DNA of 36,389 nt from Acidobacteriota bacterium (GTDB taxonomy: Bacteria; Acidobacteriota; Thermoanaerobaculia; UBA5066; Gp7-AA6), in NCBI GenBank assembly GCA_031370065.1, contig JANMPW010000002.1, positions 1 to 36,389 of the forward strand, written 5' to 3'. The position numbers and the translations under genes were made by a program. A model generated the notes under the pieces. The model did no database searches and was not told the origin of the DNA. It saw only the letters and a program-made list of their open reading frames with translations. Shown here piece after piece: positions 1,728 to 19,875 of the stretch. Positions within the stretch are counted from its first letter, which is position 1; the number at the start of each line of letters is the position of its first letter.

Positions 1728-2921
1728 ATGGCGGAGACCGGTTCCGACATCGTCATCCTCGAGGGCGCGCGGACTCCGATGGTGGAGTACAACGGCGCGT
1801 TTGCGGACGTCACGGCCATCGACCTGGGCGTCCACGCGGCCCGCGAGGCACTCAAGCGCTGCGGCACGGAGCCTGGCGAAGTGGACCACGTCATCTTCGG
1901 CAACGCCCTGCAGACCTCGGGAGACGCGATCTATGGTGCCCGGCACGTCGGCCTCAAGGCGGGAGTTCCCAAGGAAGTTCCGGCCCTGACGGTCAACCGC
2001 CTCTGCGGGTCGGGGTTCGAGTCCATCGTGCAGAGCGCGCACCGGATCCTCCTCGGAGAAGCGACGACGGTCCTCGCCGGAGGAATGGAGAACATGTCGC
2101 AGGCGCCCCACGTCATCCGCGGCGCGCGCAAGGGCCTGCGCTTCGGCCAGGGGCAGCTCGAGGACTCGCTGATGGTCGCCCTGCTCGACTCCTACTGCGG
2201 CCTCTACATGGCCCAGACGTCCGACCGGGTCGCGGCGAAGTACGGGATCTCGCGCGCGGAGCAGGATGCCTACGCGCTTTCCTCGCAGCAACGCGCGGCG
2301 CAAGCCTGGGAGGCATGTCGCCTGTCGGAGGAAGTCGTGCCGGTGGAGGTCCAGACCGGACGCAAGACCGTGCGCGTCGAGAAAGACGACCACCTGCGCC
2401 CCGACTCGACCCTCGAGGCGCTCGCGGCGCTGCCGCCTTCCTTCGGCAAGGACGGGGGCGTCACGGCCGGAAATGCGTCCGGGATCGTGGACGGTGCGGC
2501 CGCCGTGGTCGTGACGACGGCGCGGGCGGCAAAGGCGAAGGGGCGCAAACCCCTCGGCCGGTTGGTCTCGTGGGCCGTCGTGGGAGTGGAGCCCGAACTG
2601 ATGGGCCTCGGGCCGGCTCCGGCCGCGCGCAAGGCAATCGCGAAGGCCGGGCTCAAGCTGGAAGACATCGGTCTCTGGGAGATCAACGAGGCCTTCGCGG
2701 GCCAGATCCTCGGTGTGATGCGCGAGCTCTCCCTCGACCGCGAGAAGTTGAACGTGAATGGCGGGGCGATCGCGCTCGGACATCCGCTTGCTGCCACGGG
2801 GACGCGCTGCACGCTGACCCTGCTCAAGGAGATGCGGCGGCGCGGCGTGCGGTACGGCCTGGCCGGCGCGTGCATCGGCGGCGGGCAGGGCATCGCGGTC
2901 GTCGTGGAGTCGGCCGCTTAG
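1728..2921 (+). CDS. acetyl-CoA C-acetyltransferase (thiolase II)
   Basis: 397 aa. It has the thiolase hallmarks NRLCGSG (active-site Cys), GGMENMS, NEAFA, NVNGGAIALGHPLAATG and CIGGGQGIAVV at the C-terminus. Confidence 0.95.
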   Translation: MAETGSDIVILEGARTPMVEYNGAFADVTAIDLGVHAAREALKRCGTEPGEVDHVIFGNALQTSGDAIYGARHVGLKAGVPKEVPALTVNRLCGSGFESIVQSAHRILLGEATTVLAGGMENMSQAPHVIRGARKGLRFGQGQLEDSLMVALLDSYCGLYMAQTSDRVAAKYGISRAEQDAYALSSQQRAAQAWEACRLSEEVVPVEVQTGRKTVRVEKDDHLRPDSTLEALAALPPSFGKDGGVTAGNASGIVDGAAAVVVTTARAAKAKGRKPLGRLVSWAVVGVEPELMGLGPAPAARKAIAKAGLKLEDIGLWEINEAFAGQILGVMRELSLDREKLNVNGGAIALGHPLAATGTRCTLTLLKEMRRRGVRYGLAGACIGGGQGIAVVVESAA

Positions 2922-2934
2922 CGCGGTCCCGGCG

Positions 2935-3273
2935 GTGGGTCTTCTCGTGAACTGGACCGAGAGGATCCTCGACTTTTCCGTGCGCGCTGCAGCCGTGGAT
3001 GACTTCCTGAAGGACCTGCGCGCGCATGGAACGGCGGACCTGAATGCCGTCCTCGCCACGCTCAACGAGAGCGGCCTCTGCCGGGAGGCGCTGGACTATT
3101 GGACCGGAAACGCCTGGATCGAGCTTGCGCCGAACGCCCCGACGGTCGCGCTGGCGGGGTCGGCTTTCGCCCCGCAGCTGACGCTGCGGAATTTTTGTGG
3201 AGAGGCCGCCGAGCGGGACGAAGACATCCCCTCCGCGTCCGAGGAGGAGTCGAAGGATCATGACGATGCGTAA
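2935..3273 (+). CDS. hypothetical small protein with acidic C-terminal tail
   Basis: 112-aa ORF (GTG start; alternative GTG at 2947) with normal amino-acid composition and clear G/C preference at codon position 3. No motif recognised. The tail is ...ERDEDIPSASEEESKDHDDA. Its 3' end overlaps the hbd start. Confidence 0.55.
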   Translation: MGLLVNWTERILDFSVRAAAVDDFLKDLRAHGTADLNAVLATLNESGLCREALDYWTGNAWIELAPNAPTVALAGSAFAPQLTLRNFCGEAAERDEDIPSASEEESKDHDDA

Positions 3274-4114
3274 AGTGGGCGTCCTCGGGGCGGGACTGAT
3301 GGGCTCCGGCATCGCCGAGGTGTGCGCCAAAGCCGGCTACGACACCGTGGTTCGCGAGGTGTCGGAGGATCTGGTCAAGAAGGGGCTTTTGCGGATCGAA
3401 GGGTCGCTCGGCAAGGCCGTCGAAAAGGGCAAGCTCGCGGTGGCGGACCGGGACGCCGCCAGGAAGCGGATCTCCTCGACCACGCGGCTCGAGGATCTCG
3501 CCGACTGCGACCTCGTGATCGAGGCCATCGTCGAGAACCTGGAAGTGAAGAAGGAGACCTACGGCGCGCTCGACCGGCTCTGCAAGCCCGCGACGATCTT
3601 CTGCTCGAACACCTCCTCGCTCACGATCACCGAGATGTCCGCGGCCACCCAGCGTCCGGACCGTTTCGCCGGCCTGCACTTCTTCAACCCCGTCCCCGTG
3701 ATGAAGCTCGTCGAAGTGGTGCGCACGATCTCGACCTCCGACGAGACCGCGGCGGCCGTGTTCGAGTTCGCCCGCTCGCTCGGCAAGGATCCCATCCGCA
3801 CGCACGACAATTCGGGCTTCATTGTCAACCGGCTCCTCGTGCCTTACCTCCTCGACGCCGTGCGCGCCCTCGAGGAAGGCGTCGGCACGCGCGAGGACAT
3901 CGACAAGGGTATGGAGCTCGGGTGCGGACATCCGATGGGCCCGCTCAAGCTTCTCGACTTCGTCGGACTCGACACGACCTACGCCATCGCGGAGATCATG
4001 TTCGACGAGTACCGGGAAAAGCGCTTTGCGCCCCCTCCGATGTTGAAGCGCATGGTCCTCGCCGGGCGCTACGGGAAGAAATCCGGGCGAGGCTTCTACG
4101 AGTACGGAGGGTAG
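3260..4114 (+). CDS. hbd: 3-hydroxybutyryl-CoA dehydrogenase (3-hydroxyacyl-CoA dehydrogenase family)
   Basis: N-terminus MTMRKVGVLGAGLMGSGIAEV is a Rossmann GxGxxG motif. FFNPVPVMKLVEV and GFIVNRLL motifs are typical of Hbd/PaaH. The start could equally be ATG 3266 (MRKVGVLGAG). The ORF-track start at 3197 lies inside the previous ORF. Confidence 0.93.
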   Translation: MTMRKVGVLGAGLMGSGIAEVCAKAGYDTVVREVSEDLVKKGLLRIEGSLGKAVEKGKLAVADRDAARKRISSTTRLEDLADCDLVIEAIVENLEVKKETYGALDRLCKPATIFCSNTSSLTITEMSAATQRPDRFAGLHFFNPVPVMKLVEVVRTISTSDETAAAVFEFARSLGKDPIRTHDNSGFIVNRLLVPYLLDAVRALEEGVGTREDIDKGMELGCGHPMGPLKLLDFVGLDTTYAIAEIMFDEYREKRFAPPPMLKRMVLAGRYGKKSGRGFYEYGG

Positions 4115-4118
4115 GGCC

Positions 4119-4904
4119 ATGGGCGAGCTCGTTCGCGTCGAAGACCAGGAGGGCGGGATCCGCGTGATGACGGTCACGCGGCCGGAAAAGCTGAATGCCC
4201 TGAACGCGGCCGTCCTGGACGATCTCGCGGGCGCTGTCGCGCGCGCGGAGACCGATCCGGGCCTGCGCTGCGTCGTCCTGACCGGAGCCGGCGACAAGGC
4301 GTTCATCGCGGGGGCGGACATCGCCGAGCTCTCGAAACTCTCGCCCCTCGAGGGCCGGGAGCACGCGCGGCGCGGACAGGCCCTGTTCGACCGCGTCTCG
4401 AACCTGCCGGTGCCGACGATTGCCGCCATCAACGGCTTCGCGTACGGCGGCGGGCTCGAGCTCGCGATGGCCTGCTCGCTGCGGGTGGCCGCGGAAAACG
4501 CGCGCATGGGCTTGCCGGAGACGTCGCTCGGAATCCTCCCGGGATACGGCGGCACGCAGCGGCTGGCCCGGCTCGTCGGACCCGCCCGGGCGATGGAGCT
4601 CGTCCTGACCGCCGAGAAGGGCCTGACGGCTGTCGAGGCGGAACGGATCGGCCTCGTCAACAGGGTGTTCCCGGCGGGCGAGGCGCTGTCCGGGGCCCTC
4701 GGCATCGCGAAGAAGATCGCGGGCAACGGCCCCGTCGCCTGCCGCTATGCGATGGAAGCGATCCGGCGCGGCCTCGAGATGCCGCTCGCGGAGGGCCAGC
4801 TGCTCGAGGCGACGCTCTTCGGGCTCTGCGCGGCGACCTCGGACACGAAGGAAGGAATGAACGCCTTCCTCGAGAAGCGCCCGGCGCGCTTCGAAGGACG
4901 CTGA
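4119..4904 (+). CDS. crt: enoyl-CoA hydratase (crotonase family)
   Basis: 261 aa. Crotonase-fold motifs: LNALN, VVLTGAGDKAFIAGADI, AAINGFAYGGGLELAMACSLRVA, GLPETSLGILPGYGGTQRL, and EGMNAFLEKRPARF at the C-terminus. Confidence 0.92.
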   Translation: MGELVRVEDQEGGIRVMTVTRPEKLNALNAAVLDDLAGAVARAETDPGLRCVVLTGAGDKAFIAGADIAELSKLSPLEGREHARRGQALFDRVSNLPVPTIAAINGFAYGGGLELAMACSLRVAAENARMGLPETSLGILPGYGGTQRLARLVGPARAMELVLTAEKGLTAVEAERIGLVNRVFPAGEALSGALGIAKKIAGNGPVACRYAMEAIRRGLEMPLAEGQLLEATLFGLCAATSDTKEGMNAFLEKRPARFEGR

Positions 4905-9124: not shown

Positions 9125-9174
9125 GTAGGGGCGGCCCTTGGGGCCGCCCGGGCGGGGCAAGCCCGGGCCCCTAC
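9125..9174. terminator. GC-rich nested hairpins between convergent genes (terminator-like)
   Basis: There is a 9-bp stem 9129-9137 (GGGCGGCCC) / 9141-9149 (GGGCCGCCC) and an alternative stem 9147-9153 (CCCGGGC) / 9161-9167 (GCCCGGG). An outer pairing is GTAGGGG 9125-9131 / CCCCTAC 9168-9174. The structure lies between the slt stop (9101) and the stop of the minus-strand gene (9171). There is no clear U-tract. Confidence 0.4.
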
Positions 9175-9515
9175 GAGCCGGCCCGCGCGATCGATCTGAC
9201 GAGGATCGTGTCTCCTTCGATCCGGCCCGCGATGCGGACCTTTTCGCCGGCGAATGGTCGGGGCAGCTCCTGGTCGTCCAGCTGGAAGGTCGCCCCCTTC
9301 GCGACGCACTTGAGAGTGCACTCCTTGTCGTTCTTGCCCATGTTGCCCTTCGCTCGCATGGGGGCGTGGTCAGGGCCGCATTCCGTGTCCGCGATAAAGC
9401 CAACGAAGATCTGGTCCGCGGGCGGATCGCCCGCGAGAAGCCCGAAGACGGGGAGCGCGCACGCGAAGAGCCGGGGCAACGGCCCGCGCTGACGGCCCCG
9501 GTAAGATGCGGCCAT
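9171..9515 (-). CDS. small secreted Cys-containing hypothetical protein
   Basis: In-frame ATG at 9515 within ORF 9171..9701 gives 114 aa: MAASYRGRQRGPLPRLFACALPVFGLLAG (signal-like), then FVGFIADTECGPDHAPMRAKGNMGKNDKECTLKCVAKGATFQLDD...KVRIAGRIEGDTILVRSI. GC3 bias is good. The part upstream of 9515 is antisense to the M20 peptidase gene. Confidence 0.6.
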   Translation of the reverse strand: MAASYRGRQRGPLPRLFACALPVFGLLAGDPPADQIFVGFIADTECGPDHAPMRAKGNMGKNDKECTLKCVAKGATFQLDDQELPRPFAGEKVRIAGRIEGDTILVRSIARAGS

Positions 9516-10920
9516 GAGAATGCAGAGCATACTCGCAACAGCGATGTTGACGGGCGCGGCGTGGGCCCGCACGGCGGTCGGGGCGGGCCCGCCGGACTTC
9601 GCCGCGGCCGAGAGCGAGGCGGTCGGCCTGCTCCAGGCGTACCTGCGGCTGGACACGACGAACCCTCCTGGAAGCGAACGGCTCGCCGCCGACTTTTTCA
9701 AGGAGATCTTCGACCGGGAAGGGATCGAGAGCCGGATTTACGACCTCGGCAAGGGTCGCGCGAACATTCTCGCGCGCCTGCCGGGCAACGGGGCGAAGCG
9801 GCCGCTCCTCCTCCTCAATCACCTCGACGTCGTGCCCGCAGATGCAGAGCGATGGACCGTCCCGCCGTTCTCGGGGGACATCCGGGACGGCTTCGTGTGG
9901 GGGCGCGGCGCCACGGACATGAAGGGCACGGCGATCTGCCAACTCGTCACCCTGCTGCTGCTGAAGCGGTCCGGCGTTGCGCTCGACCGCGACGTGATCT
10001 TCCTCGGGACGGCCGACGAGGAGGAGGGCAGGGACAACGGGGTCGCCGCAATGGTGGACCGGTACCGGTCCGACCTGCGCGACGCCGAGTATTGCCTGAC
10101 GGAGGGCAATACGATCTCCGTCGAAGACGGGCGCACCGTGGCCTGGGAAGTGGACGTCACGGAGAAGGCGCCGCTCTGGCTCAAGCTCGTCGCCAAGGGC
10201 AAGGCCGGCCACGCCTCGATCCCGGAGCCCGACGGGGCCGTGGCGCACCTCATCCGCGCCCTCGCCCGGATCCTCGACTTCGAGCCGCCGGTGCGCCTGA
10301 TCCCCGCCGTCGATGCCTATTTCCGCCAGCTCGCTCCAACGTCGAAGGGCGAGGTCGGCCGGGCGCTCGCCAATCCCCGCGCGGCACTCGACGACCCGGT
10401 CCTGCGCAGGCTCCTGCTCTCGGACCCGACGCGCAGCGCGTATCTCCGTACGACCATCTCCGTGACAGGGCTCTCGGGAAGCGAAAAGATCAACGTCATT
10501 CCCGGCGAGGCAACGGCCGCGCTCGATTGCCGCCTGCTGCCCGGCGAGGACCCGCACCGGTTCCTCGCGACCCTGCGGGAGGTCGCCGCGGATCCCTCGC
10601 TGCGATGGGACGTGCAACTGTCCGAGATCGCCACCGAGTCGCCCATCGACACGGCGCTCTTTCACGCGATCGAGCGCGCGCGCAACCGCTTTTCTCCGGG
10701 AGTGCCCGTTCTGACGCCGCCGTTGACGTCGTCCACCGACGCCTCGCGGCTGCGCCAGATCGGGTTGGTGGTCTACGGATTTGAGCCGTTCCGGCTTTCG
10801 GAGGACGACGACCGCAGCCACGGGGACGACGAGCGGCTCTCTGTCGAGAACGTCCGCTTCGGACTCGAGGTCACTTACTCCATCGTCCTCGATGTCGCGG
10901 GGACTCCCGCGGGGCGGTAG
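9514..10920 (+). CDS. M20/M25/M40-family metallopeptidase (ArgE/DapE/ACY1/CPG2-like), secreted
   Basis: N-terminal signal is MRMQSILATAMLTGAAWA. Family motifs: LLLNHLDVVPA, GRGATDMKG, FLGTADEEEG and HGDDERLSVEN. The start could also be ATG 9520. Confidence 0.88.
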   Translation: MRMQSILATAMLTGAAWARTAVGAGPPDFAAAESEAVGLLQAYLRLDTTNPPGSERLAADFFKEIFDREGIESRIYDLGKGRANILARLPGNGAKRPLLLLNHLDVVPADAERWTVPPFSGDIRDGFVWGRGATDMKGTAICQLVTLLLLKRSGVALDRDVIFLGTADEEEGRDNGVAAMVDRYRSDLRDAEYCLTEGNTISVEDGRTVAWEVDVTEKAPLWLKLVAKGKAGHASIPEPDGAVAHLIRALARILDFEPPVRLIPAVDAYFRQLAPTSKGEVGRALANPRAALDDPVLRRLLLSDPTRSAYLRTTISVTGLSGSEKINVIPGEATAALDCRLLPGEDPHRFLATLREVAADPSLRWDVQLSEIATESPIDTALFHAIERARNRFSPGVPVLTPPLTSSTDASRLRQIGLVVYGFEPFRLSEDDDRSHGDDERLSVENVRFGLEVTYSIVLDVAGTPAGR

Positions 10921-11052
10921 CGAAGAGCGGCGCTCCGCTTGGGTGTCGTCGGGCCACCCTTGGGCCGCCCGCGATCGTCACGTGTTGTCGAGGCGGGCGG
11001 GGCGAGCCCCGCTCCCACAACCCGAATGCGCGATCGGCGCTCTGTTGACCGC

Positions 11053-12414
11053 CTAGCACGACCGGCGTTTCATCGCGAAGTAGAACGGAAGGCCGAGCAG
11101 GAGAATCGCGACGCCGGCCAGCGTCTCCTTCGGCTGCTCGCGCACGGTGTTGGCGGCGAGCAGGATGGAGCTCACGACGAAGAGCAACGGCACGACGGGG
11201 TAGCCCGTGCAGCGGTACGGCCGCGCGAGGTCCGGCCGGCGGCGGCGGAAGATAAAGAGCGCGATGCCCGTGGCGGCGTACGCCAAGATCACGGCGAAGG
11301 TCGCATAGGTGTAGAGCTGGTCGTACCGGCCCGAGAGACAGAGCAGCGACATCCAGATCGCCTGCACGACGAGCGCGAACGCCGGGGTGCGAAACCGGGG
11401 GTGCACACGGCCGAAGGCCTTCGGGAAGAGTCCGTCCTTCGAGAGGGCGTAAACGATGCGCGGGCCGGGGACGATTCCGGCCGACAGGCACCCGAGGGCG
11501 GCAGCCGTCACGGCGAGGGCGATGACCGAGGCGGCGCCGGGCCCGAAGAGCCTCGTGGAGGCCAGGGTGGCCGGCTGTGCCACGTTCGCCATCTCGGCGG
11601 GTGGGATTGCTTTCAAGAAGGCCACGTTCACGGCCACGTAGAGGACCGTGACGACGGCCGTGCCGACGAGCAGCGCCAGCGGGAGATTGCGCTCGGGCCG
11701 AGCGACTTCGCCCGCCGCGGCGACGATTTCATTCCAGCCGTAGAAGCACCAGAACACGGCGATCATCGCCGTGCCGAAGGCCGCTGCTGTGATCGGGGCC
11801 GCGGGCGATGCGGGCGCGAAGATTCCGGGGGAGGGCGCCAGCGCGCCGCCGACGGCGATCCAGAGCAGCGCGAGGAGGATGAGCGCCGTGAAAAGGCCCT
11901 GGATCCGAGCCCCCTCGCGCACCCCGATGTAGTGGGTCGCCGTCAGGACCAGAACGGCGGCGACAGCTACGAGCTGGCCCGCCGTGATCGAGACCGGGCC
12001 GAGGGCCAGGACGACGTGCCTGTTGGAGAGGCCCGGGAAGAATACCGAGAGGTACTCGGCGAAGCCGGCCGCGACGGCGGCGTCGGCGCCGGCCAGGATG
12101 ATCCAGTAGGCGACCCAGGCGTAGAGAAACGCCGGCAGAGATCCGAAGGCCTCGCGGATGTAGACGTACATGCCGCCGGACTCCGGGATCATCGCGCCCA
12201 TTTCGGCGTAGACGAAGCCACCGGCGATGGAAAGAAGCCCGCCGACGACCCAGGCCGCCAGAATCCACGGGCTCGAGGGCAGCGCCTTCGCGATGGCGCT
12301 CGGCGTCAGGAAGATGCCGCCGCCCACGACGAGGCCGAACACGAGCATCGACGTGTCCCAGAGGTTCAGGCCCCGGGACAGTCCGGGGGATGACGCCGGT
12401 CGCGAGGCACTCAC
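11053..12414 (-). CDS. APC-superfamily amino acid permease
   Basis: 453 aa, about 12 hydrophobic segments. The N-terminal GGGIF...AEMGAMIPESGGMYVYIREAFG signature is typical of APC/amino-acid-polyamine transporters. Its GTG start overlaps the kce stop (GTGA, 12411-12414). Confidence 0.9.
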   Translation of the reverse strand: MSASRPASSPGLSRGLNLWDTSMLVFGLVVGGGIFLTPSAIAKALPSSPWILAAWVVGGLLSIAGGFVYAEMGAMIPESGGMYVYIREAFGSLPAFLYAWVAYWIILAGADAAVAAGFAEYLSVFFPGLSNRHVVLALGPVSITAGQLVAVAAVLVLTATHYIGVREGARIQGLFTALILLALLWIAVGGALAPSPGIFAPASPAAPITAAAFGTAMIAVFWCFYGWNEIVAAAGEVARPERNLPLALLVGTAVVTVLYVAVNVAFLKAIPPAEMANVAQPATLASTRLFGPGAASVIALAVTAAALGCLSAGIVPGPRIVYALSKDGLFPKAFGRVHPRFRTPAFALVVQAIWMSLLCLSGRYDQLYTYATFAVILAYAATGIALFIFRRRRPDLARPYRCTGYPVVPLLFVVSSILLAANTVREQPKETLAGVAILLLGLPFYFAMKRRSC

Positions 12415-13235
12415 CCCGCGGCCGGCAGATGGAGGATTTGCCGCGCCTCCGAGATCGAGGCGGGCTCTCTTCCGACTTCGCGCGCGATGCGGACGATGCG
12501 CTCGACGAAACGGGCGTTCGAGTCCGCAAGCTCGCCCTTGCGGTAATGGATGTTGTCTTCGAAGCCGACGCGCACGTGTCCCCCCATGGCGATCGCGAGC
12601 GTCGCCATCGCGGTCTGACGCCGGCCGATGCCGGCAACCGTCCAGGTGCAGCCGGCCGGAATTGAGCGCGCGAAGTGAAGCAGAGTCTCGGCAGTGGCCG
12701 CGGCGGCGCCGGGCACACCGAGCACGAAATCGAAGTGGGCTGGCGGCGCGAGCAGGCCCTTCGCGAAGAGGAAGTCGGCCGTCGAGAGCATCCCGTCGTC
12801 GAAGATCTCCAGCTCTGGCACGATCCCGAACTTGCGGATGCGCTCGAGGATGGTCCGGATCGTCGGCAGGGAATTCTCGAAGATCTCCTCGCCGAAGTTG
12901 CAGGTACCCAGGGTGAGCGTGGCCATGTCGGGCCGGAGCGTGAGCGCTTCGATCCGCTCCTCGACGCCCATGCCCACGGCGCCGCCCGTGGAGAACTGCT
13001 GGATGATCGGGCAGCGCGCGCGGATCGCCGCTGCGTAGGCCCGGAAGGTCTCGAGGTCCTGGGTGGGCCGGCCGTCGGGCCTCCTGCCGTGGACGTGCCC
13101 GATCGTTGCGCCGGCGTCGAAGGCGCGTTTGTACTCGTCGCCGACTTCGTCCGGCAGAAGGGGGAGGTTCGGCTGCTGCGTACGCATGACCTCGGCGCCC
13201 ACGCCTGCCACGGTGATGAGAAGCGCGTCGCTCAC
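12411..13235 (-). CDS. kce: 3-keto-5-aminohexanoate cleavage enzyme (BKACE/DUF849 family)
   Basis: 274 aa from in-frame GTG 13235: [51 protein letters not shown]...[11 protein letters not shown]. This is the TIM-barrel BKACE pattern with HxH and a GFED-type Zn site. Its position next to kal/kamDE/kdd supports Kce. The upstream 160 codons of ORF 12411..13715 overlap kal out of frame and are Arg/Pro-rich. Confidence 0.85.
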
Positions 13236-13600
13236 GGGCGGCTCCTCTGCTTGTCGAGCGGCACGACGCAGGTACCCACGGCTCGCGCCACGACCTCCGG
13301 CGGCTCCATGAGCCGCGCCGAGGAGCCTTCCCCCGGCGCGATGACCTTGCGCGCCTCGAAGCGCATCTCGCGGGACGTCTTGCCCACGCGCGTGATCTCT
13401 GCCTCGACCTCGAGGTAGTCGCCGCCGCGGACCGGTGCCAGAAATTCGACCGACGAGTAGGCGCGCAAGAGGCCCTCGTCCCCGTCGTGGCGGATGAGCA
13501 GCTCGGTGGCTGCGTCGCCGAAGAGCTTCAGCACGAACGCGCCGTCCACGAGGCCTCCGCCGTAGTGCGCCTGCTCGGCGCCCACACGCAAACGGAGCAC
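13232..13600 (-). CDS. kal: 3-aminobutyryl-CoA ammonia-lyase (hot-dog fold)
   Basis: 122-aa hot-dog-fold-like protein ([24 protein letters not shown]...[44 protein letters not shown]). GTG start with GGAG 8 nt upstream. Its stop overlaps the kce start (GTGA). The functional call rests mainly on size, fold and its conserved position between kamE and kce. Confidence 0.7.
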
Positions 13601-13617
13601 GACGCGCTCCGACCCGC

Positions 13618-14376
13618 TCAGGAGTCCGCTCCGGAAAGGCCGTGACGGCGGGAGAGCTCCTCGAGCAGGAAGGCCGCCACGCGGGATGCCGTCGTGCCCG
13701 GGCCGAAGCCCGCATCGTAGCCGAGCTCCTTCGCGAGGGCGTGGTCCACGCGTGCCCCGCCGGCGACGAGAACGACGCGGTCGCGCAGCCGCTCCGCCTC
13801 GAGCATGTCGACGAGGTCGGTCAGGTGCCGGATGTGGATCTCGTTCTGGGTCACCGTGGCGGACACGAGGAGGGCGTCGGCCTTCGCGTCGCGGACCTGC
13901 CGGGCGACCTCGGCCACGGGGACCTGCGCGCCGAGGTTGCGGGCGTCGAACCCGTGGTAGCGCTCGAGGCCGTAGTCGCCGGCGTAGCCCTTCATGTTGA
14001 AGATCGCGTCGAGGCCGACCGTGTGGGCGTCAGACTCGAGGGCGCAGCCGAGGACCACCAGGCGCCGGCCGAATCGCAGGGCGATCTCGGCGTCGATCTC
14101 TTCGCGATCGAGCGCGGCCGCCGGGGCTTCCTCGGCCGTGATCGCGGCAACGTCCACGTCGTGGGTGGCGCGCCCGTAGACGATGAAGTACGTGAAGTCC
14201 GGAGCGATCGCCTCGGCGAGCGTCACGTACGGCTCGCGGATCCCCATCTTCGACACGTAGCGCTTGGCCGCCTCGGCCGCCACGGCTGACTTCGGGATGG
14301 GCAGCGTGAACGAGATCTGGACGGCGCCGTCGTTCTTCTTGTCGCCGTAGGGGCGGACCGCCTTCGGCGCGCTCAC
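13618..14376 (-). CDS. kamE: beta-lysine (D-lysine) 5,6-aminomutase beta subunit, B12/PLP-binding
   Basis: Cobalamin-binding DxHxxG motif ([10 protein letters not shown]) in a Rossmann-like C-terminal half, and N-terminal [19 protein letters not shown] typical of KamE. I chose GTG 14376, which overlaps the kamD stop (GTGA). Confidence 0.9.
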
Positions 14377-15932
14377 CCGCTGGCTCCTGCGGGCGCCTCG
14401 CTCCACGCCTCCATAAAAGGATTGGCATACGCGGCGCCGAGGCGAACCACGCCGTCAAACCCGCGGCCACGGTCCCGGGGCCGGCGGGTGTCCGCGAAAA
14501 CGCCCGAGGCGAGGGCTTCGACCAGGCCTTTCTGGCCCACGGTCTCCAGGATCCGCTCGGCATCCCGGAGGACCTCGTGCGCGCGTTTCACGATCCGTCC
14601 GCCCGGCGGGAACGTGATTTCCTCGGAGAGATGCCGCGCGTTCTTCCGGATCGTCTTCGCCTGCTCGATCGCCAACCAGCGGTCGTGCAGGAAGGGGGTG
14701 TGCAGCGCCTCGGTCAGCATCCCGAGCAGGTGGATCGACTGGCCCGTCGCGACCGACGTCAGCATGAAGAGCGTGTTCTGCTGGTAGCCGCGGAAGATGT
14801 TGCCCGTCATGTGCTTGGTCGGCGGCATGTACTTGAGCGGCGCGTCCGGGAAGATCTCCCTCGCCGTCTCGGCCTGCGCGATCTCGTAGAGCAGTCCGTC
14901 CTCGAGCTCGGGGTCGATCTCGAAGGCATGGCCGAGGCCGATCTGCCAGTCCTCGAGGCCGGCGTTCTTCGCGAGCCGCTCGTTGATGAACTGAGAGGCG
15001 AGAACCGCGGGCGCCTGCTCGATGGCGTCGGCCGTCGTGAGGTAGTTGTCCTCGCCCGTGTTGATCACGACGCCCGCGGCCGCGTTGATCCGGCGCGAGA
15101 AGTTCTGGTCGATCAGAGTGCGCAGAGGGTTGATGTCCCGGAAGATGATGCCGTAGAGGGCGACGTTCAGCATCATGTCGAGGCGCTCGAGGGCGCCCAT
15201 CGCCGCGATCTCCGGCATGCACAGGCCCGAGCAGTAGTTCACCAGGCGCACGTACCGGCCGATCTCGGGCTCGACCGCGTCCAGGGCCGCGCGCATCAGG
15301 CGGAAGTTCTCCTGCGTGGCGAAAGTCCCGCCGAAACCGGAGGTGGTCGCGCCGAAGGGCACGTGGTCGAGCAGCGACTGCGCCGTCGAGCGGATGACGG
15401 CGATGCACTGGGCCCCGGCGCGGGCGGCCGCCTCGGCCTGCACGAGATCCTCGTGGATGTTCCCGGTGGCGACGATGGCGTAGAGGAGCGGCAGCTCTTC
15501 GGGTGGATGCGAGGCCTGGCGGCGCTCGCGCTCGGTGCGGTTGCCGCGGATCCGCGCCACCGTCGCTTCCACGTGGGGCGCGACGGCCTCGCGCCAGCGC
15601 GGGTGCTCCGAGAGCGCGGCGGCTTTCTTCGGGTCGGCCAGGAGCGCGGCGGCTTCGGAAACGCTTCGGGCGCCCTGCTCCAGGGCGCTGCCCATCCAGA
15701 GGGCCGCCCCCTGCGCGAGCCTGCCGCAGGCCTGGAGGGACTCGATCACCCGGTTAGGAATCGGGACGTCGTCCGCGTCCACACCGTCCACGCCGCAGAG
15801 ACGCAGGACGGTGCGCTCGGTCGCGACGGTCGTGTATTGGCTGGTCTCCTCCCGCACCCCGTCCGCGACCTGGCGCGCGAGGCGCCGGCAGCGCTGGATC
15901 TGTTCGGGGCAGAGGCCGAGCTTCGGGACCAT
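14373..15932 (-). CDS. kamD: beta-lysine (D-lysine) 5,6-aminomutase alpha subunit
   Basis: 519 aa, alignable along its whole length to my recollection of Clostridium 5,6-LAM alpha. Matching stretches include LLYAIVATGNIHEDL, GATTSGFGGTFATQENFRLMR, NYCSGLCMPEIAAMGA, INTGEDNYLTTADA, LKYMPPTKHMTGNIF and HLLGMLTEALHTPF. Confidence 0.95.
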   Translation of the reverse strand: MVPKLGLCPEQIQRCRRLARQVADGVREETSQYTTVATERTVLRLCGVDGVDADDVPIPNRVIESLQACGRLAQGAALWMGSALEQGARSVSEAAALLADPKKAAALSEHPRWREAVAPHVEATVARIRGNRTERERRQASHPPEELPLLYAIVATGNIHEDLVQAEAAARAGAQCIAVIRSTAQSLLDHVPFGATTSGFGGTFATQENFRLMRAALDAVEPEIGRYVRLVNYCSGLCMPEIAAMGALERLDMMLNVALYGIIFRDINPLRTLIDQNFSRRINAAAGVVINTGEDNYLTTADAIEQAPAVLASQFINERLAKNAGLEDWQIGLGHAFEIDPELEDGLLYEIAQAETAREIFPDAPLKYMPPTKHMTGNIFRGYQQNTLFMLTSVATGQSIHLLGMLTEALHTPFLHDRWLAIEQAKTIRKNARHLSEEITFPPGGRIVKRAHEVLRDAERILETVGQKGLVEALASGVFADTRRPRDRGRGFDGVVRLGAAYANPFMEAWSEAPAGASG

Positions 15933-15955
15933 TCGGTCTGAAAGTATAGCCGTGA

Positions 15956-15977
15956 GGTCAGGCAGACGAGCCTGACC
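15956..15977 (-). other. perfect 8-bp stem-loop at the P-loop gene / kamD junction
   Basis: GGTCAGGC (15956-15963) / GCCTGACC (15970-15977) with a 6-nt loop, covering the stop codon of the P-loop gene (15958-15960). A third GGTCA lies at 15981-15985. On the mRNA strand it is followed by the locally AT-rich CACGGCTATACTTTCAGACCGA and then the kamD ATG. Confidence 0.4.
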
Positions 15978-16872
15978 ACAGGTCAGCTCCGAGGTCGAAG
16001 ATCGGGACCTCCGGGAACTCCCGGCGCACCGCCTCGAACATCCTCGCCGCCGGAAGCGGCGGCCGCGCGGGCGCCGTCGGGTTGGCGGTGAGCGCGAGCA
16101 GGCGGGCCCTCCGGCGCACGGCGAGGCGGACGCCCTGCTCCCGCAGCTTCTTCCTCTCTTGAGGCGACAGGAAAATGGCGGTGAAGTCCTCGGCGACGAG
16201 CACGTCTCCGGATTCCGGTGGATTCTCGCCGAGCCAGACTTCCGTCAGCGCGCCTTCCACGCTGCGGACGGGGGCCGTCGGTTCTGCCTTCGGGAGCTGG
16301 ATGAGCTCGACGGCGTCGCGCGCGACCCCGAGCACGGATTCGAGGGATTCGGCCGCTGCCATCCCGACTGACAGGACGATCGCGTCGGCCACGCGCGCGC
16401 AGGCGAAAGCGCGGCGGCCGATCGCCCCGTCGAGGAGCACCATGGCCGCCCCGGCCGATTCGAGCGCAGTGGCCGTCTCGGCCATCTGCGACGCCGTCGA
16501 GGGTCCGATCACCTCGATCTCGCCTTCGCCATGCGCCCGGCGAATCTCGACCGGGCCGAAGCGGGTCGCGAAAGGTAGCGTCGCGACCGGCGAGGTCGGG
16601 AACGACGCGGAAGCATAGGTCGAGGCAGCGGAGGCCACGAGCTGCCCGGGAAAGACTCGAAAGCGCGGCTTCGCTTCGCCCGTGATGGCGTCGAACCTTT
16701 CCCCGTCCCGGCCCGCGGACGTCGTTGCCCCGGCGACACCGGCCCGGTGCAGCTCTGCGAGCACGGCCACGAGCGCCGTGGTCTTTCCAACGTTTTTGGC
16801 GAGCCCGAGGAAGGCGACGCGGCGCGCGCCGGACCGGAGGATCGTTTCGGTGAGCTCGCGGGCGGCGGTCAA
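15958..16872 (-). CDS. P-loop NTPase of unknown function (candidate aminomutase accessory / reactivase ATPase)
   Basis: 304 aa. Walker A is FLGLAKNVGKTTAL near the N-terminus, with a later hydrophobic-Asp segment AMVLLDGAIGRR (Walker-B-like). Its TTG start overlaps the kdd stop (TTGA, 16869-16872). GC3 bias is good. No other domain recognised. Confidence 0.7.
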   Translation of the reverse strand: MTAARELTETILRSGARRVAFLGLAKNVGKTTALVAVLAELHRAGVAGATTSAGRDGERFDAITGEAKPRFRVFPGQLVASAASTYASASFPTSPVATLPFATRFGPVEIRRAHGEGEIEVIGPSTASQMAETATALESAGAAMVLLDGAIGRRAFACARVADAIVLSVGMAAAESLESVLGVARDAVELIQLPKAEPTAPVRSVEGALTEVWLGENPPESGDVLVAEDFTAIFLSPQERKKLREQGVRLAVRRRARLLALTANPTAPARPPLPAARMFEAVRREFPEVPIFDLGADLWSGSSA

Positions 16873-17918
16873 CGCGCGGGGCTTCCCGAGAGGGCCGCGA
16901 AGGCCTGCGCGAGCGCGGCGTGCCGGCGCAAGAGGCCGAGCGCCGCCTCGTCATGGCCGGGGACGAACCCGTTGCCGATCATCAAGGACGTGGGCTTGGC
17001 GAGGCCCTCGGCCCCAAGGGCCGCCGCCGAGAACGAAGTCGCCATGCCGAAGAACAGGACCGTCCCGTCGTCCCGCGCGCAGAGAACGCTCGCGGCTTCG
17101 GTGCCCGAGGCGTTGGCCACGTTGACGACCAGATCGGCCATGCTCCCTCCCGTGGCGGCCTCCACGGCGGACAGCATCGCCACCGCATCCCGGGCGTCGA
17201 TCGCGAAGACCTCGTCCGCGAGACCGAGCGCTCGTGCGCGCTCCGCGGCCCGCGGCGACGGCTCGACGGCCAGGACCTTGCCCTCCGCGCCCACCTTCTC
17301 CCGGGCGGCTGCAAGGCACAGGAGGCCCGCTTTTCCGGTCCCGATGACGACGACGGTCTGGCCGAAACGCGCATCGCGGAGCACGCTCGCGGGCGCACCG
17401 GCCACGTCGAAGGCCGCCAGGGCCACCGCCTCGGAAAAGTCCTCCGGCAGGCACGCGAAGAGCGTCCGCTCGAAGAGGATGGCGGTTCCCGTGACGTCCA
17501 CGCGCTCGGTCTCGACATGGATGTCGCCGATCGTCTCGAGGTGCAACGGCGTCAAGGTCAGTGAAACGAGAGAGGCAATCCTCTCGCCGGGGCGGACACG
17601 GCCCGCCGCGGGATGACGGGGCCCCACGGCGCTCACCTCTCCGAGGAGCATTCCTCCCGAACCGGTCACGGGGTTCTGCATCTTGCCGCGTTCGCCGACG
17701 ATCCGGGCGATCTGCGCGCGGACCGTTTCGCCGGTCGCGGACTCCGTCTCGCGCAGCTGAAGGAACGACGCCGAATCAATGGAAAGTGCGCGGACCGCGA
17801 TGGCCATTTCGTTCTCGAGGGCGCGGGGCGTCGCGTCGAGCCGTCGGGCGACCTGCGGCAGGACGCCGGGAGGGTCGAGGGAACGGTGCAGGCCGAAGGG
17901 ATGCGGGTTCAATGCCAT
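16869..17918 (-). CDS. kdd: L-erythro-3,5-diaminohexanoate dehydrogenase
   Basis: 349 aa. The N-terminus HPFGLHRSLDPPGVLPQVARRLD...LSIDSASFLQL matches my recollection of the Kdd N-terminal signature. A Rossmann motif VVVIGTGKAGLL sits mid-protein. GAGGA lies 6 nt upstream of the ATG. Genomic context is the kam/kce/kal genes. Confidence 0.82.
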   Translation of the reverse strand: MALNPHPFGLHRSLDPPGVLPQVARRLDATPRALENEMAIAVRALSIDSASFLQLRETESATGETVRAQIARIVGERGKMQNPVTGSGGMLLGEVSAVGPRHPAAGRVRPGERIASLVSLTLTPLHLETIGDIHVETERVDVTGTAILFERTLFACLPEDFSEAVALAAFDVAGAPASVLRDARFGQTVVVIGTGKAGLLCLAAAREKVGAEGKVLAVEPSPRAAERARALGLADEVFAIDARDAVAMLSAVEAATGGSMADLVVNVANASGTEAASVLCARDDGTVLFFGMATSFSAAALGAEGLAKPTSLMIGNGFVPGHDEAALGLLRRHAALAQAFAALSGSPAR

Positions 17919-17929
17919 CGAGGTCCTCG

Positions 17930-18733
17930 TCAGGGAAGCAGGGCCACGATGCGCAGGGGACCCCCGGAGCCCCCGGCAATCTTCATGGGAAGGGCGACGA
18001 CCCAGGCGCCCGTTTCCGGAAGCTCGTCCAGGTGTGCGACGTTTTCGAGACCGGGAACGTTCGCGCCGTTTGCAATCTGGTGCACGATGAAATCTTTGGA
18101 GGCGCCGTAGTCGATCGATGCCGTGTCCACGCCGAGCGCGCCGACCTTGCGTTTGCGCACGAGATATTCCGCCGCCTCCTTTCCGTAGGACGGAAAATGC
18201 AGCTTCGAGACGTCTCCGGGCGTGTCGTCTCCGAGGTAGGTCTTCTTGTCCGGCCAGCGCGCACTCCAGCCCGTCTCGAGGAGCACGATCGTGCCAGGGG
18301 TGATCGTCCCATGACGGCGTTCCCAGTCCCGAACGTCCTCGAGGGTGAGCCGGTAGTCCGGGTCGGCTGCGGTCTTCTTCCGAATGTCGATCACGGCAGC
18401 CGGAGCGATGAGCTGGCGGACGGGGATGCGGTCGGCGGTCAGGCCATCCTTGGCAAAGTGGATCGGCGCGTCGAGGTGCGTCCCTCCATGCTCCGGTGTG
18501 CAGAATGTGTTCGACGAATAGAACCAGCCTCCGGGCGTCTGGCCATACGCCTGCGACCTGAGCTCGAAGGCCGAGGGGGAGTTCGGCCAGTAGATCGTCT
18601 TCTCATCGAAGGCGTGCGTCAGGTCGACGACCCTCGCCGTCGCGAGGTCCGGAGCCTTCGAACCCTGGGCCGCGCTCTCGTGGGCACCGAGAAGGGAGCA
18701 GAGCACTCCCGCTGTAAGCGTCGATTGCCGCAT
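17930..18733 (-). CDS. cyclase-family protein (kynurenine formamidase-like metal amidohydrolase fold) with signal peptide
   Basis: The HGGTHLDAPIHF motif (HxGTHxDxPxH) is typical of the putative-cyclase/arylformamidase family. N-terminus MRQSTLTAGVLCSLLGAHESAAQG looks like a Sec signal. Its stop is only 11 nt upstream of the kdd ATG. Confidence 0.85.
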   Translation of the reverse strand: MRQSTLTAGVLCSLLGAHESAAQGSKAPDLATARVVDLTHAFDEKTIYWPNSPSAFELRSQAYGQTPGGWFYSSNTFCTPEHGGTHLDAPIHFAKDGLTADRIPVRQLIAPAAVIDIRKKTAADPDYRLTLEDVRDWERRHGTITPGTIVLLETGWSARWPDKKTYLGDDTPGDVSKLHFPSYGKEAAEYLVRKRKVGALGVDTASIDYGASKDFIVHQIANGANVPGLENVAHLDELPETGAWVVALPMKIAGGSGGPLRIVALLP

Positions 18734-18876
18734 GGGCCCCTCCTATTCTTCCGCCACGCCGCGGGCTGGGGAAGGGCTGGTCGACGCGACCTCTTCGACC
18801 GAGAGGCTGCGCGATTTTGCTTCCACCTTCTCTTTCCGCTTGGGATGCATCGCGAGCCCGGATATTTTCACGGATC

Positions 18877-19875
18877 ATGACAGCCGTCGAGCGTTCGGAC
18901 GAGGCCTGGCCGATTTCCTTCGCAGACGTCCTCGCCGCAGAGGCCCGCATCCGCCCCCTGATCGCTCCGACACCTCTGCGCCGCTACGCCTCGCTCGACG
19001 CAGCGGTCGGGCGCGGCATCTCCGTGTGGGTCAAGCACGAGAACCAGGCACCGACGAACTCCTTCAAGATCCGCAACGCCCTGTCGGCCGTCACGCTCCT
19101 GTCGGAGCAAGAGCGGCGCCGGGGCATCGTGGCGGCCACGCGCGGCAATCACGGCCTCGGCGTGGCCTGCGCCGGCGCCCTTTATGGCGCCCCCGTCACG
19201 ATCTGCGTTCCGCGGGGCAACAACCCGGAGAAAAACGAGGGGATGCGCGGTTACGGGGCGACCCTGATCGAGGAGGGCCGGGACTACGATGAGTCCGTGG
19301 CGGTCGCCGAACGGCTCGTGCGCGAGCGCGGCCTGAGCCTGATCCACTCCACGAACGACGCACGCGTGCTGGCTGGCGCCGCGACGGTGACGCTCGAGAT
19401 GCTGCGCGAGATTCCCGAGCTCGATGCCCTCGTCGTGAGCGTGGGCGGCGGTTCCCAGGCGGTGGGCGCCCTCACGGTCGCGCGGACGCTCCGCCCCTCC
19501 CTGCCGGTCTACGGCGTCCAGGCGGCGGGGGCCTCGGCCGCGCACGACTCGTGGCACGCCGGCAAGCCCGTGCCAAAGGATTCGGCGGACACGTTTGCGG
19601 ACGGCCTCGCCACGCGCAGCGTCTATGCGATGACGTTCGGGCCCATGCAGCGGGGCCTCGCGGAATTCGTGACGGTGACCGACGCCGGGATCGCAGAGGC
19701 GGTCCGCGTGCTTCTGCGAACCACCCACAATCTGGCCGAGGGAGCCGGCGCCGCCGGCCTCGCCGGCGTTCTGGCCCTCGTGGATCGGCTGGCGGGCAAG
19801 CGGGTCGGGATCATTCTCTCGGGAGGCAACATCGACCGCACGACGCTCGCACGAGTCCTCAACGGGGAGTTATGA
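18877..19875 (+). CDS. PLP-dependent serine/threonine dehydratase-family enzyme (Trp-synthase beta-like fold)
   Basis: From ATG 18877: IRPLIAPTPL, HENQAPTNSFKIRNA (PLP-lysine motif SFK), GIVAATRGNHGLGVACAG, VSVGGGSQAVG. Exact substrate (threonine, serine, hydroxyaspartate or racemase) cannot be told from sequence alone. Confidence 0.85.
   Translation: MTAVERSDEAWPISFADVLAAEARIRPLIAPTPLRRYASLDAAVGRGISVWVKHENQAPTNSFKIRNALSAVTLLSEQERRRGIVAATRGNHGLGVACAGALYGAPVTICVPRGNNPEKNEGMRGYGATLIEEGRDYDESVAVAERLVRERGLSLIHSTNDARVLAGAATVTLEMLREIPELDALVVSVGGGSQAVGALTVARTLRPSLPVYGVQAAGASAAHDSWHAGKPVPKDSADTFADGLATRSVYAMTFGPMQRGLAEFVTVTDAGIAEAVRVLLRTTHNLAEGAGAAGLAGVLALVDRLAGKRVGIILSGGNIDRTTLARVLNGEL

Follow-up and report, generated by a model that had tools for sequence, protein, structure and literature searches.

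Within the 36,389-nucleotide stretch of DNA analyzed here (the window), which derives from a soil or sediment acidobacterium of the Thermoanaerobaculia (Acidobacteriota), we found a known pathway cluster in a new form: a complete gene set for beta-lysine breakdown that comes with its own presumed importer, at a locus that lacks kamA. We consider it likely that kdd, a kamB-like gene, kamD, kamE, kal, kce, and an APC permease gene form a seven-gene catabolic cassette within a conserved Thermoanaerobaculia backbone, immediately preceded by an exported, unrelated cyclase, and that the cassette enzymes act along the route set out below. The enzyme identities rest on homology; the pathway flux we infer.

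Gene layout and predicted enzymes

Eight minus-strand genes in the window are genuine, and their open reading frames and junctions reproduced those of the preliminary description. The run opens with a cyclase-family hydrolase (17930-18733), followed after an 11-nt gap by Kdd (16869-17918), which overlaps the KamB-like P-loop gene (15958-16872) in TTGA. After a 25-nt gap comes KamD (14373-15932), overlapping KamE (13618-14376) in GTGA, and after another 17 nt Kal (13232-13600), overlapping Kce (12411-13235) in GTGA; Kce in turn overlaps the APC permease (11053-12414) in GTGA, with which the cassette ends in the window. Neighboring genes either overlap or lie no more than 25 nt apart, and no junction carries an intrinsic-terminator-like site, the sole minus-strand match lying inside kdd. 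The same gene order was found again in 21 related loci, and hence the arrangement in the window is not due to chance. The GC content of the cassette (~0.68-0.72) was the same as that of its flanks.

Searches with Pfam profiles and with NCBIfam models, at NCBI's equivalog cut-offs, bore out the earlier assignment of Kdd, KamDE, Kce, and Kal to the 3,5-diaminohexanoate route. Kdd scored 223.7 against NF052381 (cut-off 200; PF00107 also matched), KamD scored 749 against NF052384 (cut-off 600; PF09043, E = 1e-225), KamE scored 334 against NF052385 (cut-off 280; PF16554 and PF02310 matched), and Kal scored 165.7 against NF052388 (cut-off 160; PF03061 matched). Kce (371.7 against NF052387, cut-off 382; PF05853, E = 3e-95) and the KamB-like protein (207 against NF052386, cut-off 210) fell just below their cut-offs, which points to a divergent branch. 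The cassette's first gene, kdd, is by homology that of an L-erythro-3,5-diaminohexanoate dehydrogenase, 41-49% identical to Kdd of canonical kamA-containing clusters, and kamE is that of a predicted B12- and PLP-binding 5,6-aminomutase beta subunit, whose DxHxxG motif reads DAHTVG in translation. The gene that had been labeled only P-loop does encode such a protein (Walker A motif GLAKNVGKTT), which the profile match refines to a putative KamB-like lysine 5,6-aminomutase reactivase subunit. Likewise, placing the DUF849 protein as Kce among the BKACE families proved sound: the second-best BKACE model scored only 239, the best solved structure was 2Y7D (Kce; E = 5.5e-71), and the HxH and GFEDN motifs align, so that by sequence its nearest relative is genuine Kce. 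The permease (PF13520, E = 3e-61) is of the APC amino-acid superfamily and is presumed to import the substrate.

In the proposed route, the permease would import the substrate, and KamDE, using adenosylcobalamin and PLP and kept active by the KamB-like protein, would convert (3S)-beta-lysine to 3,5-diaminohexanoate. Kdd would oxidize and deaminate this to 5-amino-3-oxohexanoate, from which Kce, with acetyl-CoA, would yield acetoacetate and 3-aminobutyryl-CoA, the latter being split by Kal into crotonyl-CoA and ammonia. Some 6 kb away, the backbone encodes thiolase, 3-hydroxybutyryl-CoA dehydrogenase (Hbd), and crotonase (1728..4904, plus strand; Pfam and NCBIfam matches), housekeeping enzymes that could then turn crotonyl-CoA into acetyl-CoA. 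Their genes have no linkage to the cassette, as they also lie beside the cyclase in three cassette-less loci (L131, L132, and L153). We found no CoA-transferase or acetoacetate-activating enzyme in the window. That such a pathway should sit in a GC-rich host, earlier noted as a surprise, is less striking given that the class Thermoanaerobaculia was named for an anaerobic thermophile, a name that need not describe the lifestyle of these MAGs.

A conserved cassette without kamA

Across the related loci compared, the seven genes from Kdd to the permease behaved as a presence/absence cassette. The order Kdd-KamB-KamD-KamE-Kal-Kce-permease recurred in L001-L007 and L083; it was kept, with extra genes inserted before KamD, in L085 and on the contig carrying P0103, and contigs L086-L102 and L104 maintain it as far as each contig reaches. 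An APC permease homolog followed Kce in all acidobacterial cassette loci that extend that far.

The reported lack of kamA in the window held up. A tblastn search with clostridial KamA gave no match there at E ≤ 1e-4, and the single CxxxCxxC match in the window falls within an open stretch of 90 residues (nt 8905), which fails the coding-frame (GC3) test. Neither was kamA present in any of the 21 acidobacterial cassette loci, in sequence fetched around each (flanks of up to 10 kb on each side where the contig allows). The beta-lysine-forming step is therefore missing from the locus throughout the clade. Of 47 Kdd-bearing loci in other phyla, 45 carry kamA inside the cluster; the exceptions are L072 and a 4.6-kb contig (L045). 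A kamC gene was also lacking: tblastn with KamC gave no match in the window or in L001-L007.

Beyond the permease, an exported M28 peptidase ends the cassette in six of the nine more distant acidobacterial cassette loci (those not nearly identical to the window), as the next gene on the same strand (L005, L006, L007, L083, L085, and the contig carrying P0103). The window has lost this gene and keeps only an exported M20-family metallopeptidase or deacylase (9514..10920, plus strand; PF01546 and PF07687), convergent with the permease and with a signal-like N-terminus, MRMQSILATAMLTGAAWA. Within the clade, M20 occurs solely beside the cassette (the window, L001, L002, L004, L006, and L089-L091) and is not present in the cassette-less L131, L132, and L153; it is possibly an accessory gene of the cassette.

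Origin of the beta-lysine

As the operon has no kamA, beta-lysine would be either made with a gene encoded elsewhere or taken up from outside. Our working guess, to which we give about an even chance, is that imported L-lysine is converted by a KamA-family enzyme encoded elsewhere. Second, and more tentatively, we rank a supply from outside, where the cell would have no KamA and the permease would import external beta-lysine, or beta-lysine freed outside from a conjugate, perhaps by an exported exopeptidase or deacylase (M20 in the window; an M28/PA/TFR peptidase in relatives); methanogen N-epsilon-acetyl-beta-lysine and beta-lysyl natural products are possible sources. Such a supply is consistent with the absence of kamA from every acidobacterial cassette locus in the fetched sequence, as against its presence in 45 of 47 canonical ones, and with the cassette having gained a permease of a kind that canonical clusters lack. 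The same-strand M28 gene of six relatives and the confinement of M20 to cassette loci point the same way. Moreover, where kamA usually lies, the independently kamA-less Spirochaetales locus L072 has genes for an ArgE/DapE-type deacylase and for a transporter of the NhaC type; this keeps the idea alive, although the deacylase would not be the cyclase. However, an exported exopeptidase with an amino-acid permease fits ordinary scavenging of peptides and L-lysine equally well, free beta-lysine is rare relative to lysine, and the window itself has lost M28. A literature search found no paper on N-acetyl-beta-lysine catabolism, and hence offers no precedent either way.

Rather less probable than a supply from outside is turnover of the cell's own solute, with a KamA/AblA-type gene and an acetyltransferase in a separate operon and the cassette recycling the solute after an osmotic down-shift; kamA would then be kept outside the cassette to prevent a futile cycle. 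Other osmolytes are known to have separate synthesis and breakdown clusters, which makes this conceivable by analogy, and one relative (the contig carrying P0103) does have a GNAT acetyltransferase inserted within its cassette. Yet we saw no ablA or ablB homolog in any fetched locus, and the cassette permease and exported peptidases indicate an external supply; the idea is wholly inferential.

The cyclase belongs to the chromosomal backbone

The gene at the head of the run encodes an exported cyclase-family (isatin-hydrolase-like) metallohydrolase that is a backbone gene and a positional neighbor, not a pathway enzyme. The earlier label, amidohydrolase-like with a signal peptide, was right about the signal-like N-terminus but not about the fold, as the protein matches PF04199 (E = 8e-44) and, among solved structures, best 8F9X (C-PTE; 1e-42) and isatin hydrolases (1e-33 to 1e-38). 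Its HGGTHLDAPIH stretch is an intact HxGTHxDxPxH metal motif, and N-termini are signal-like but differ in sequence between orthologs; export is predicted from these sequence features.

The backbone order in our scan of cyclase loci was GuaA / SpoIIE / M28 / PALP / ParB-like / cyclase, then SLT / Xer / HMGL / Crt / Hbd / Thl. Xer/HMGL adjoin the cyclase without any cassette between them in L121, L131, L132, L137, L150, and L153, and SLT and Crt/Hbd/Thl are present too wherever the contig shows them. Upstream of the cyclase, the window retains a ParB-like remnant of 35 codons (18743..18850, minus strand, read from sequence; full gene ~320 aa), while the whole gene lies between PALP and the cyclase in relatives (L002:6254-7192, with orthologs in L004, L005, and L006).

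These data bear on the notion that cyclase and permease bracket a dedicated system in which the exported cyclase deacylates N-acyl-beta-lysine outside and the product enters through the permease. Only 11 nt separate the stop of the cyclase gene from the start of kdd, the signal-like N-terminus and the metal motif fit such a role, and kdd was next in 10 of 10 metagenome loci with a cyclase at least 78% identical and followed by 600 nt or more of sequence. But where cyclase identity was 70-78%, kdd came next in only 2 of 27 loci, and below 70% in none of 18; homologs at 65-75% identity sit in unrelated contexts. In ten kdd-less loci, the cyclase adjoins SLT, Xer, or HMGL of the backbone; the cassette of L083 comes without a cyclase, the L006 cyclase has decayed (an internal deletion of ~50 aa and an altered metal motif), and 1.6-2.1 kb of unrelated genes separate cyclase and Kdd in L100 and L104. 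The nearest characterized relatives, furthermore, act on isatin, lactones, and phosphotriesters rather than acyl-amino acids. Gene context thus largely refutes a deacylase role, which we regard as very unlikely, and the cyclase, being part of the conserved backbone, does not bracket the system; of the two linkages examined in related genomes, only the permease proved a constant member. Still, the cyclase is probably co-transcribed with the cassette in the window, where the 11-nt spacing and a Shine-Dalgarno-like sequence upstream of the cyclase make this possible, and it may have a local functional link in this lineage.

Least probable of all is that the cassette acts on another diamino or beta-amino acid or is a decaying remnant, as the slightly low Kce and KamB scores and the absence of both kamA and kamC might suggest: all seven open reading frames are intact with strong third-position GC, KamD identity of 68% to 98% across the clade with preserved order indicates purifying selection, and each enzyme best matches a lysine-pathway equivalog by a wide margin.

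Comparison with known systems

The cyclase resembles isatin hydrolases (5NMP, 4J0N, and 5NNA) and C-PTE (8F9X; PMC12135135) in its PF04199 domain and HxGTHxDxPxH motif (E = 1e-33 to 1e-42), but differs in its signal-like N-terminal extension, and nothing ties it to isatin or organophosphates. The cassette enzymes resemble those of the canonical 3,5-diaminohexanoate clusters of Fusobacterium, Clostridium, Bacteroidales, and Thermotogae (exemplified here by loci L009-L081): kdd, kamD, kamE, kce, kal, and kamB-like genes are shared at 41-63% protein identity, with the same predicted chemistry from beta-lysine to crotonyl-CoA and acetoacetate. Unlike the window, canonical clusters have kamA after kdd and before kamB (45 of 47 loci), a MutS-like kamC occurs in 40 of 75 non-acidobacterial loci, and none of the 75, all KamD loci, has a homolog of the window's permease or cyclase. 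The Fusobacterium nucleatum pathway, whose gene organization is given in Figure 2 of PMC3149608, also uses a butyrate-acetoacetate CoA-transferase (PMC3149608), whereas the window has none.

Natural variants with one pathway gene replaced or missing from the cluster are known. One of them, seen in 'Candidatus Cloacamonas acidaminovorans' and on a Bacteroidetes contig, has a CoA-ester beta-transaminase (Kat) instead of kal and keeps kamA (PMC3149608), whereas the window has kal but no kamA. The Spirochaetales locus L072 (CAYPIQ010000004.1), of independent origin, has KamD, KamE, Kce, Kdd, and KamB but no KamA within 10 kb, and its cluster includes a transporter. It differs in having a cytoplasmic ArgE/DapE-type deacylase, an NhaC-family transporter instead of the APC permease, a Kat-like aminotransferase and CoA-transferase in place of Kal, and a sigma-54 activator. 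The closest non-acidobacterial KamD proteins (58-60% identity) are those of Alicyclobacillus and of compact Bacillota clusters from uncultured MAGs (L008, L023, and L047). Like the window, these compact clusters do without kamC; unlike it, they have no permease and keep kamA. Their order, Kdd-KamA-KamB-KamD-KamE-Kal-Kce, is that of the window plus kamA, and the 4-nt overlap of kdd and kamB in the window falls where kamA would be expected.

A beta-lysine cassette on the minus strand

The window, which has a GC content of ~70% over its whole length, carries eight minus-strand ORFs head to tail, separated by 4-nt overlaps and by gaps of 11, 25 and 17 nt, and both the ORFs and their junctions match the array that the preliminary description had read there. 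The enzyme assignments made with it hold as well: Profile searches with each ORF placed Kdd, KamD, KamE and Kal above their NCBIfam equivalog cut-offs, and Kce and the KamB-like protein just under theirs and far ahead of any other model. At the head of the array stands a cyclase-family gene (17930-18733; PF04199, E = 8e-44), followed by kdd (16869-17918; NF052381, 223.7 against a cut-off of 200), encoding 3,5-diaminohexanoate dehydrogenase, and by a KamB-like P-loop gene (15958-16872). Next come kamD (14373-15932; NF052384, 749 against 600, with a PF09043 match) and kamE (13618-14376; NF052385, 334 against 280, with PF16554 and PF02310 matches), the two subunits of the adenosylcobalamin- and PLP-dependent beta-lysine 5,6-aminomutase; kal (13232-13600; NF052388, 165.7 against 160), for 3-aminobutyryl-CoA ammonia-lyase, a step at which Kat can substitute; kce (12411-13235); and an APC permease gene (11053-12414). 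We refer to the seven genes from kdd to the permease gene as the cassette. Going by the identities of its enzymes, it would yield acetoacetate, crotonyl-CoA and two ammonia from beta-lysine, a chemistry that is established for homologues (PMC3149608).

The KamB/KamC reactivase pair is incomplete: The P-loop product scores 207 with the KamB reactivase subunit model (cut-off 210), and the MutS-like KamC is missing from the window and from every acidobacterial locus, while 40 of the 75 loci from outside the Acidobacteriota have it. Genes for the final steps of the fermentation (butyryl-CoA:acetoacetate CoA-transferase and Bcd/Etf) are likewise missing: None of the scanned window ORFs has a CoA_trans, acyl-CoA dehydrogenase or ETF domain, and the window offers just the genes for thiolase, Hbd and crotonase, which belong to the surrounding backbone of conserved chromosomal genes. 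Neither a lysine or cobalamin riboswitch nor any other Rfam element was matched in the whole window at the gathering threshold, nor at E <= 1 over 10500-19500, and no sigma-70-like promoter was found, which means little in so GC-rich a non-model phylum.

The composition of the window shows no anomaly and no mobility signature lies beside the cassette, where repeats stay at chance level except for one GC-rich hairpin-like pair around the gene of an M20 metallopeptidase; we therefore do not propose that the cassette was transferred recently. The pair consists of two similar 23-nt elements (CGGGCGGGGCRAGCCC...), one at 9149-9171 after the stop codon of the SLT gene and the other at 10994-11016 in the convergent spacer between the permease and M20 genes, which may act as terminators or represent a short repeat of intergenic sequence.

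The cassette is a presence/absence block in a conserved backbone

A metagenome scan with an alignment of the cyclase returned 80 loci, 55 of which have at least 600 nt of sequence after the cyclase gene. Here, kdd came next after the cyclase in 10 of 10 loci at a cyclase identity of at least 78%, in 2 of 27 at 70-78%, and in 0 of 18 below 70%. In six cassette-less loci (L121, L131, L132, L137, L150 and L153), the genes upstream of the cyclase are, where visible, the same GuaA, SpoIIE, M28, PALP and ParB-like genes as in the window, and Xer and HMGL follow directly downstream. The SLT, crotonase, Hbd and thiolase genes also occur in these six loci where the contig shows them, and in the window they lie beyond the cassette. 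These cassette-less joins therefore identify the stretch from Kdd to the permease as a block that some loci have and others lack within a conserved backbone, of which the cyclase and the thiolase, Hbd and crotonase genes are members.

Acidobacterial relatives that carry the cassette show the same independence. The distant relative L083 has the cassette and no cyclase; in L006, the cyclase (6259-6984) has a ~50-aa internal deletion and the metal motif HGGSHVNAPHH instead of HGGTHLDAPIH, and it is probably decaying, with the cassette downstream intact; and on two metagenome contigs (L100 and L104) unrelated genes separate the cyclase from kdd. The earlier suggestion of a dedicated acyl-beta-lysine salvage locus that includes the cyclase is thus largely refuted, as the cyclase occurs in this backbone in ten loci without kdd and is missing from one locus with the cassette. 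As a point of method, a gene lying this close upstream proved to be a positional neighbor when cassette-less relatives were compared.

The cyclase has a PF04199 domain with an HxGTHxDxPxH metal motif, and EHGGTHLDAPIH, which five orthologues keep unchanged, aligns with 8F9X and 5NMP. Solved structures match the protein from residue 32 onward, the best of them being the cyclase-phosphotriesterase 8F9X and isatin hydrolases, with kynurenine formamidases distant; residues 1-31 are signal-peptide-like, a character that the N-termini of the orthologues share without sharing the sequence. By homology, the protein may be an isatin, lactam or amide hydrolase, and its clade hydrolyses isatin, lactones and phosphotriesters (PMC12135135).

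Upstream of the cyclase, the window retains a 35-codon remnant (MHPKRKEKVEAKSRSL...; 18743-18850, minus strand) of a ParB-like gene of ~320 aa in full. The gene has been deleted in L001 and L003 as well as in the window; L002, L004, L005, L006 and many metagenome loci still have it whole, between PALP and the cyclase. Elsewhere in the backbone, a conserved 389-aa protein (4919-6088, plus strand), encoded between crotonase and an IPMS/HMGL-like gene, is found in most related loci and matches no Pfam or NCBIfam model.

A divergent Kce, a constant permease and variable peptidases

The DUF849 protein, whose place among the BKACE enzymes had been left to be checked, matches PF05853 over its full length (E = 3e-95) and is closest to genuine Kce both by profile and by structure. 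It scored 371.7 with the Kce model, versus 239 with that for 3-oxoadipate:acetyl-CoA acetyltransferase and 194 with that for the dioxohexanoate enzyme, and its top PDB match was the genuine Kce 2Y7D (5.5e-71; next, 1e-49). It is 46-57% identical to the Kce of kamA-containing clusters. The score falls about 10 bits short of the equivalog cut-off of 382; its orthologues in L002 and L083 scored 371.9 and 378.6, versus 445 for a canonical Fervidobacterium Kce. Judged from its sequence, the window protein is a divergent branch of Kce. Its gene overlaps kal and the permease gene by 4 nt each, an arrangement kept by every related cassette locus whose sequence extends to Kce.

The permease is an APC-family protein of full length (PF13520, E = 3e-61, residues 16-424) that reached no NCBIfam equivalog, its best match being the subfamily model TIGR00909 (244 versus 557). 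It accompanies the cassette in every related cassette locus that extends far enough, and from this constant linkage we predict that it imports the substrate. Of the linkage that the preliminary description had proposed for cyclase and permease across relatives, the permease half thus stands, and the cyclase half does not, the cyclase being a backbone gene that L083 lacks. Among unrelated genes at 28721-30052 (minus strand), the window encodes another APC-family permease, which shares 37% identity with that of the cassette.

Peptidase genes beside the permease vary among the relatives. The permease gene is followed on its own strand by the gene of an exported M28 peptidase, directly in L005 (14898-16952), L083 (14904-17030), L085 (6796-9240), L006 and L007, and also on the contig carrying P0103. 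This peptidase combines PA and TFR-dimer domains, an architecture like that of glutamate carboxypeptidase II; its gene is fragmented in L002. The window has lost the gene and has no copy of it. It keeps a convergent gene (9514-10920) for an M20 metallopeptidase with a signal-like N-terminus, which in this clade was seen only where the cassette is present and is missing from L005, L007, L083 and L085.

Genes unrelated to lysine chemistry have been inserted in or beside the cassette of relatives, among them genes for PAP2, a sulfatase/TPR protein and ABC-2 transporter components. On the contig carrying P0103 (JGI 3300047160), the insert between kamB and kamD holds a DinB-family gene, a 154-aa ORF, a GNAT acetyltransferase gene and a faint cytochrome-c-like ORF; the GNAT protein, which has weak Pfam matches, recalls by its place beside beta-lysine genes the beta-lysine acetyltransferases.

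kamA is absent from the acidobacterial loci

The gene for lysine 2,3-aminomutase, kamA, is indeed missing from the window, as first noted: The sole CxxxCxxC match lies in a 90-residue open stretch that failed a coding-frame test, and a tblastn search of the window with clostridial KamA gave no match. No kamA was found in or beside the cluster, and the flanking sequence retrieved, up to 10 kb on each side, is free of it in L001-L007, L083, L085 and 12 metagenome cassette loci as well.

To place this absence, we took the 80 loci returned by a KamD-profile scan with one genome per species and mapped the window proteins and a KamA query onto them. Outside the Acidobacteriota, 45 of 47 Kdd-bearing loci carry KamA, the exceptions being L072 and L045 (a 4.6-kb contig), and the usual order is Kdd-KamA-KamB-KamC-KamD-KamE. 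No homologue of the cyclase or the permease occurs in any of the 75 non-acidobacterial loci. The order of the window is kept in the seven acidobacterial loci L001-L007, with which three more distant relatives, L083, L085 and the contig carrying P0103, agree. The nearest KamD homologues are 75-98% identical, and those bearing a name belong to Thermoanaerobaculia or Acidobacteriota; the KamD of JBGPGG01, a MAG that is a GTDB species representative, is 95% identical, and an exact look-up of the window KamD returned no record. The sources include Danish environmental (MFD) and soil-catalogue (SMAG) MAGs, most others being JGI metagenome contigs.

Two further groups appeared in the scan. In 28 of the 75 non-acidobacterial loci (among L011-L082; mostly Bacteroidales MAGs), KamD, usually with KamE, has no Kdd or Kce within 10 kb; in these cases the genes of the lysine pathway are dispersed, or else the aminomutase serves another pathway, e.g., that of D-lysine. 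Lysine-pathway clusters that include KamA as well as Kdd, Kce, KamB and KamDE were also seen on three archaeal MAG contigs (L033, L059 and L070), from Promethearchaeia/Promethearchaeota and an uncultured archaeon, of which two bear an Asgard-group label; their KamA is 71% identical to the clostridial query.

Possible sources of beta-lysine

The cell may make its own beta-lysine through a KamA-family gene elsewhere in the genome, to which we give roughly an even chance, a small part of it falling to a KamA that serves osmolyte synthesis. Homologue searches with a Bacillota KamA, with a profile of high-GC KamA-like representatives and in a 50%-identity representative library, together with a cluster look-up of ten high-GC representatives, returned no KamA named Acidobacteriota or Thermoanaerobaculia among the best 120-150 matches listed, in a family that is very large.

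Supply by external beta-lysine or its conjugates we consider possible, at a clearly lower probability. We entertain, tentatively, a Thermoanaerobaculia clade without lysine 2,3-aminomutase that would be fed by beta-lysine or conjugates from other organisms, where beta-lysine would be freed extracellularly by an exported M20 or M28 peptidase and then taken up through the APC permease. Candidate conjugates are the methanogen osmolyte N-epsilon-acetyl-beta-lysine and beta-lysyl natural products. Other readings, or no resolution, take the remaining probability.

The best comparative support for the idea that some kamA-less clusters salvage conjugated beta-lysine comes from L072 (L072:4943-17946; CAYPIQ010000004.1), a locus of an uncultured Spirochaetales MAG that differs from the window in lineage and in hydrolase. 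It encodes KamD-KamE-Kce-Kdd, an ArgE/DapE-type M20 deacylase without a signal peptide, an NhaC-family transporter and KamB, such that the hydrolase and transporter fill the usual kamA slot; KamA itself is absent within 10 kb. The opposite strand carries, upstream, genes for a class-III aminotransferase of Kat-like type, for CoA-transferase A/B and for a sigma-54/PAS activator. The M20 protein of the window and the L072 deacylase share 24% identity over 138 aa, and we therefore rejected them as orthologues. If supply from outside holds for the acidobacterial clade, L072 would be a second, convergent instance of beta-lysine salvage, and organisms of anoxic soils and sediments would be trading beta-lysine compounds as a nutrient.

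Discussion

The 3,5-diaminohexanoate route in genomes and metagenomes is usually read as lysine fermentation to butyrate, with kamA presumed to be included; a 2007 paper reportedly completed this pathway. Here, two lineages have the lower pathway without kamA and in the company of genes for uptake and hydrolases, namely, a widespread soil and sediment acidobacterial clade (21 loci) and an independent Spirochaetales cluster. The presence of kamDE, kdd and kce is therefore not by itself a predictor of lysine fermentation. N-acetyl-beta-lysine is a compatible solute accumulated by methanogens, and the question arises whether it or beta-lysine is an environmental substrate with dedicated consumers.

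The searchable literature yielded no account of a beta-lysine cassette without kamA, of a route by which N-acetyl-beta-lysine is catabolized, or of lysine metabolism, fermentation included, in Thermoanaerobaculia. All of the enzymes are known; the novelty lies in the architecture, which keeps a consistent form throughout a lineage. Among known systems, the compact Bacillota clusters L008, L023 and L047 have the exact order of the window, with kamA and without kamC, and the acidobacterial cassette hence looks like a cluster of this compact type from which kamA was removed and to which a permease was added.
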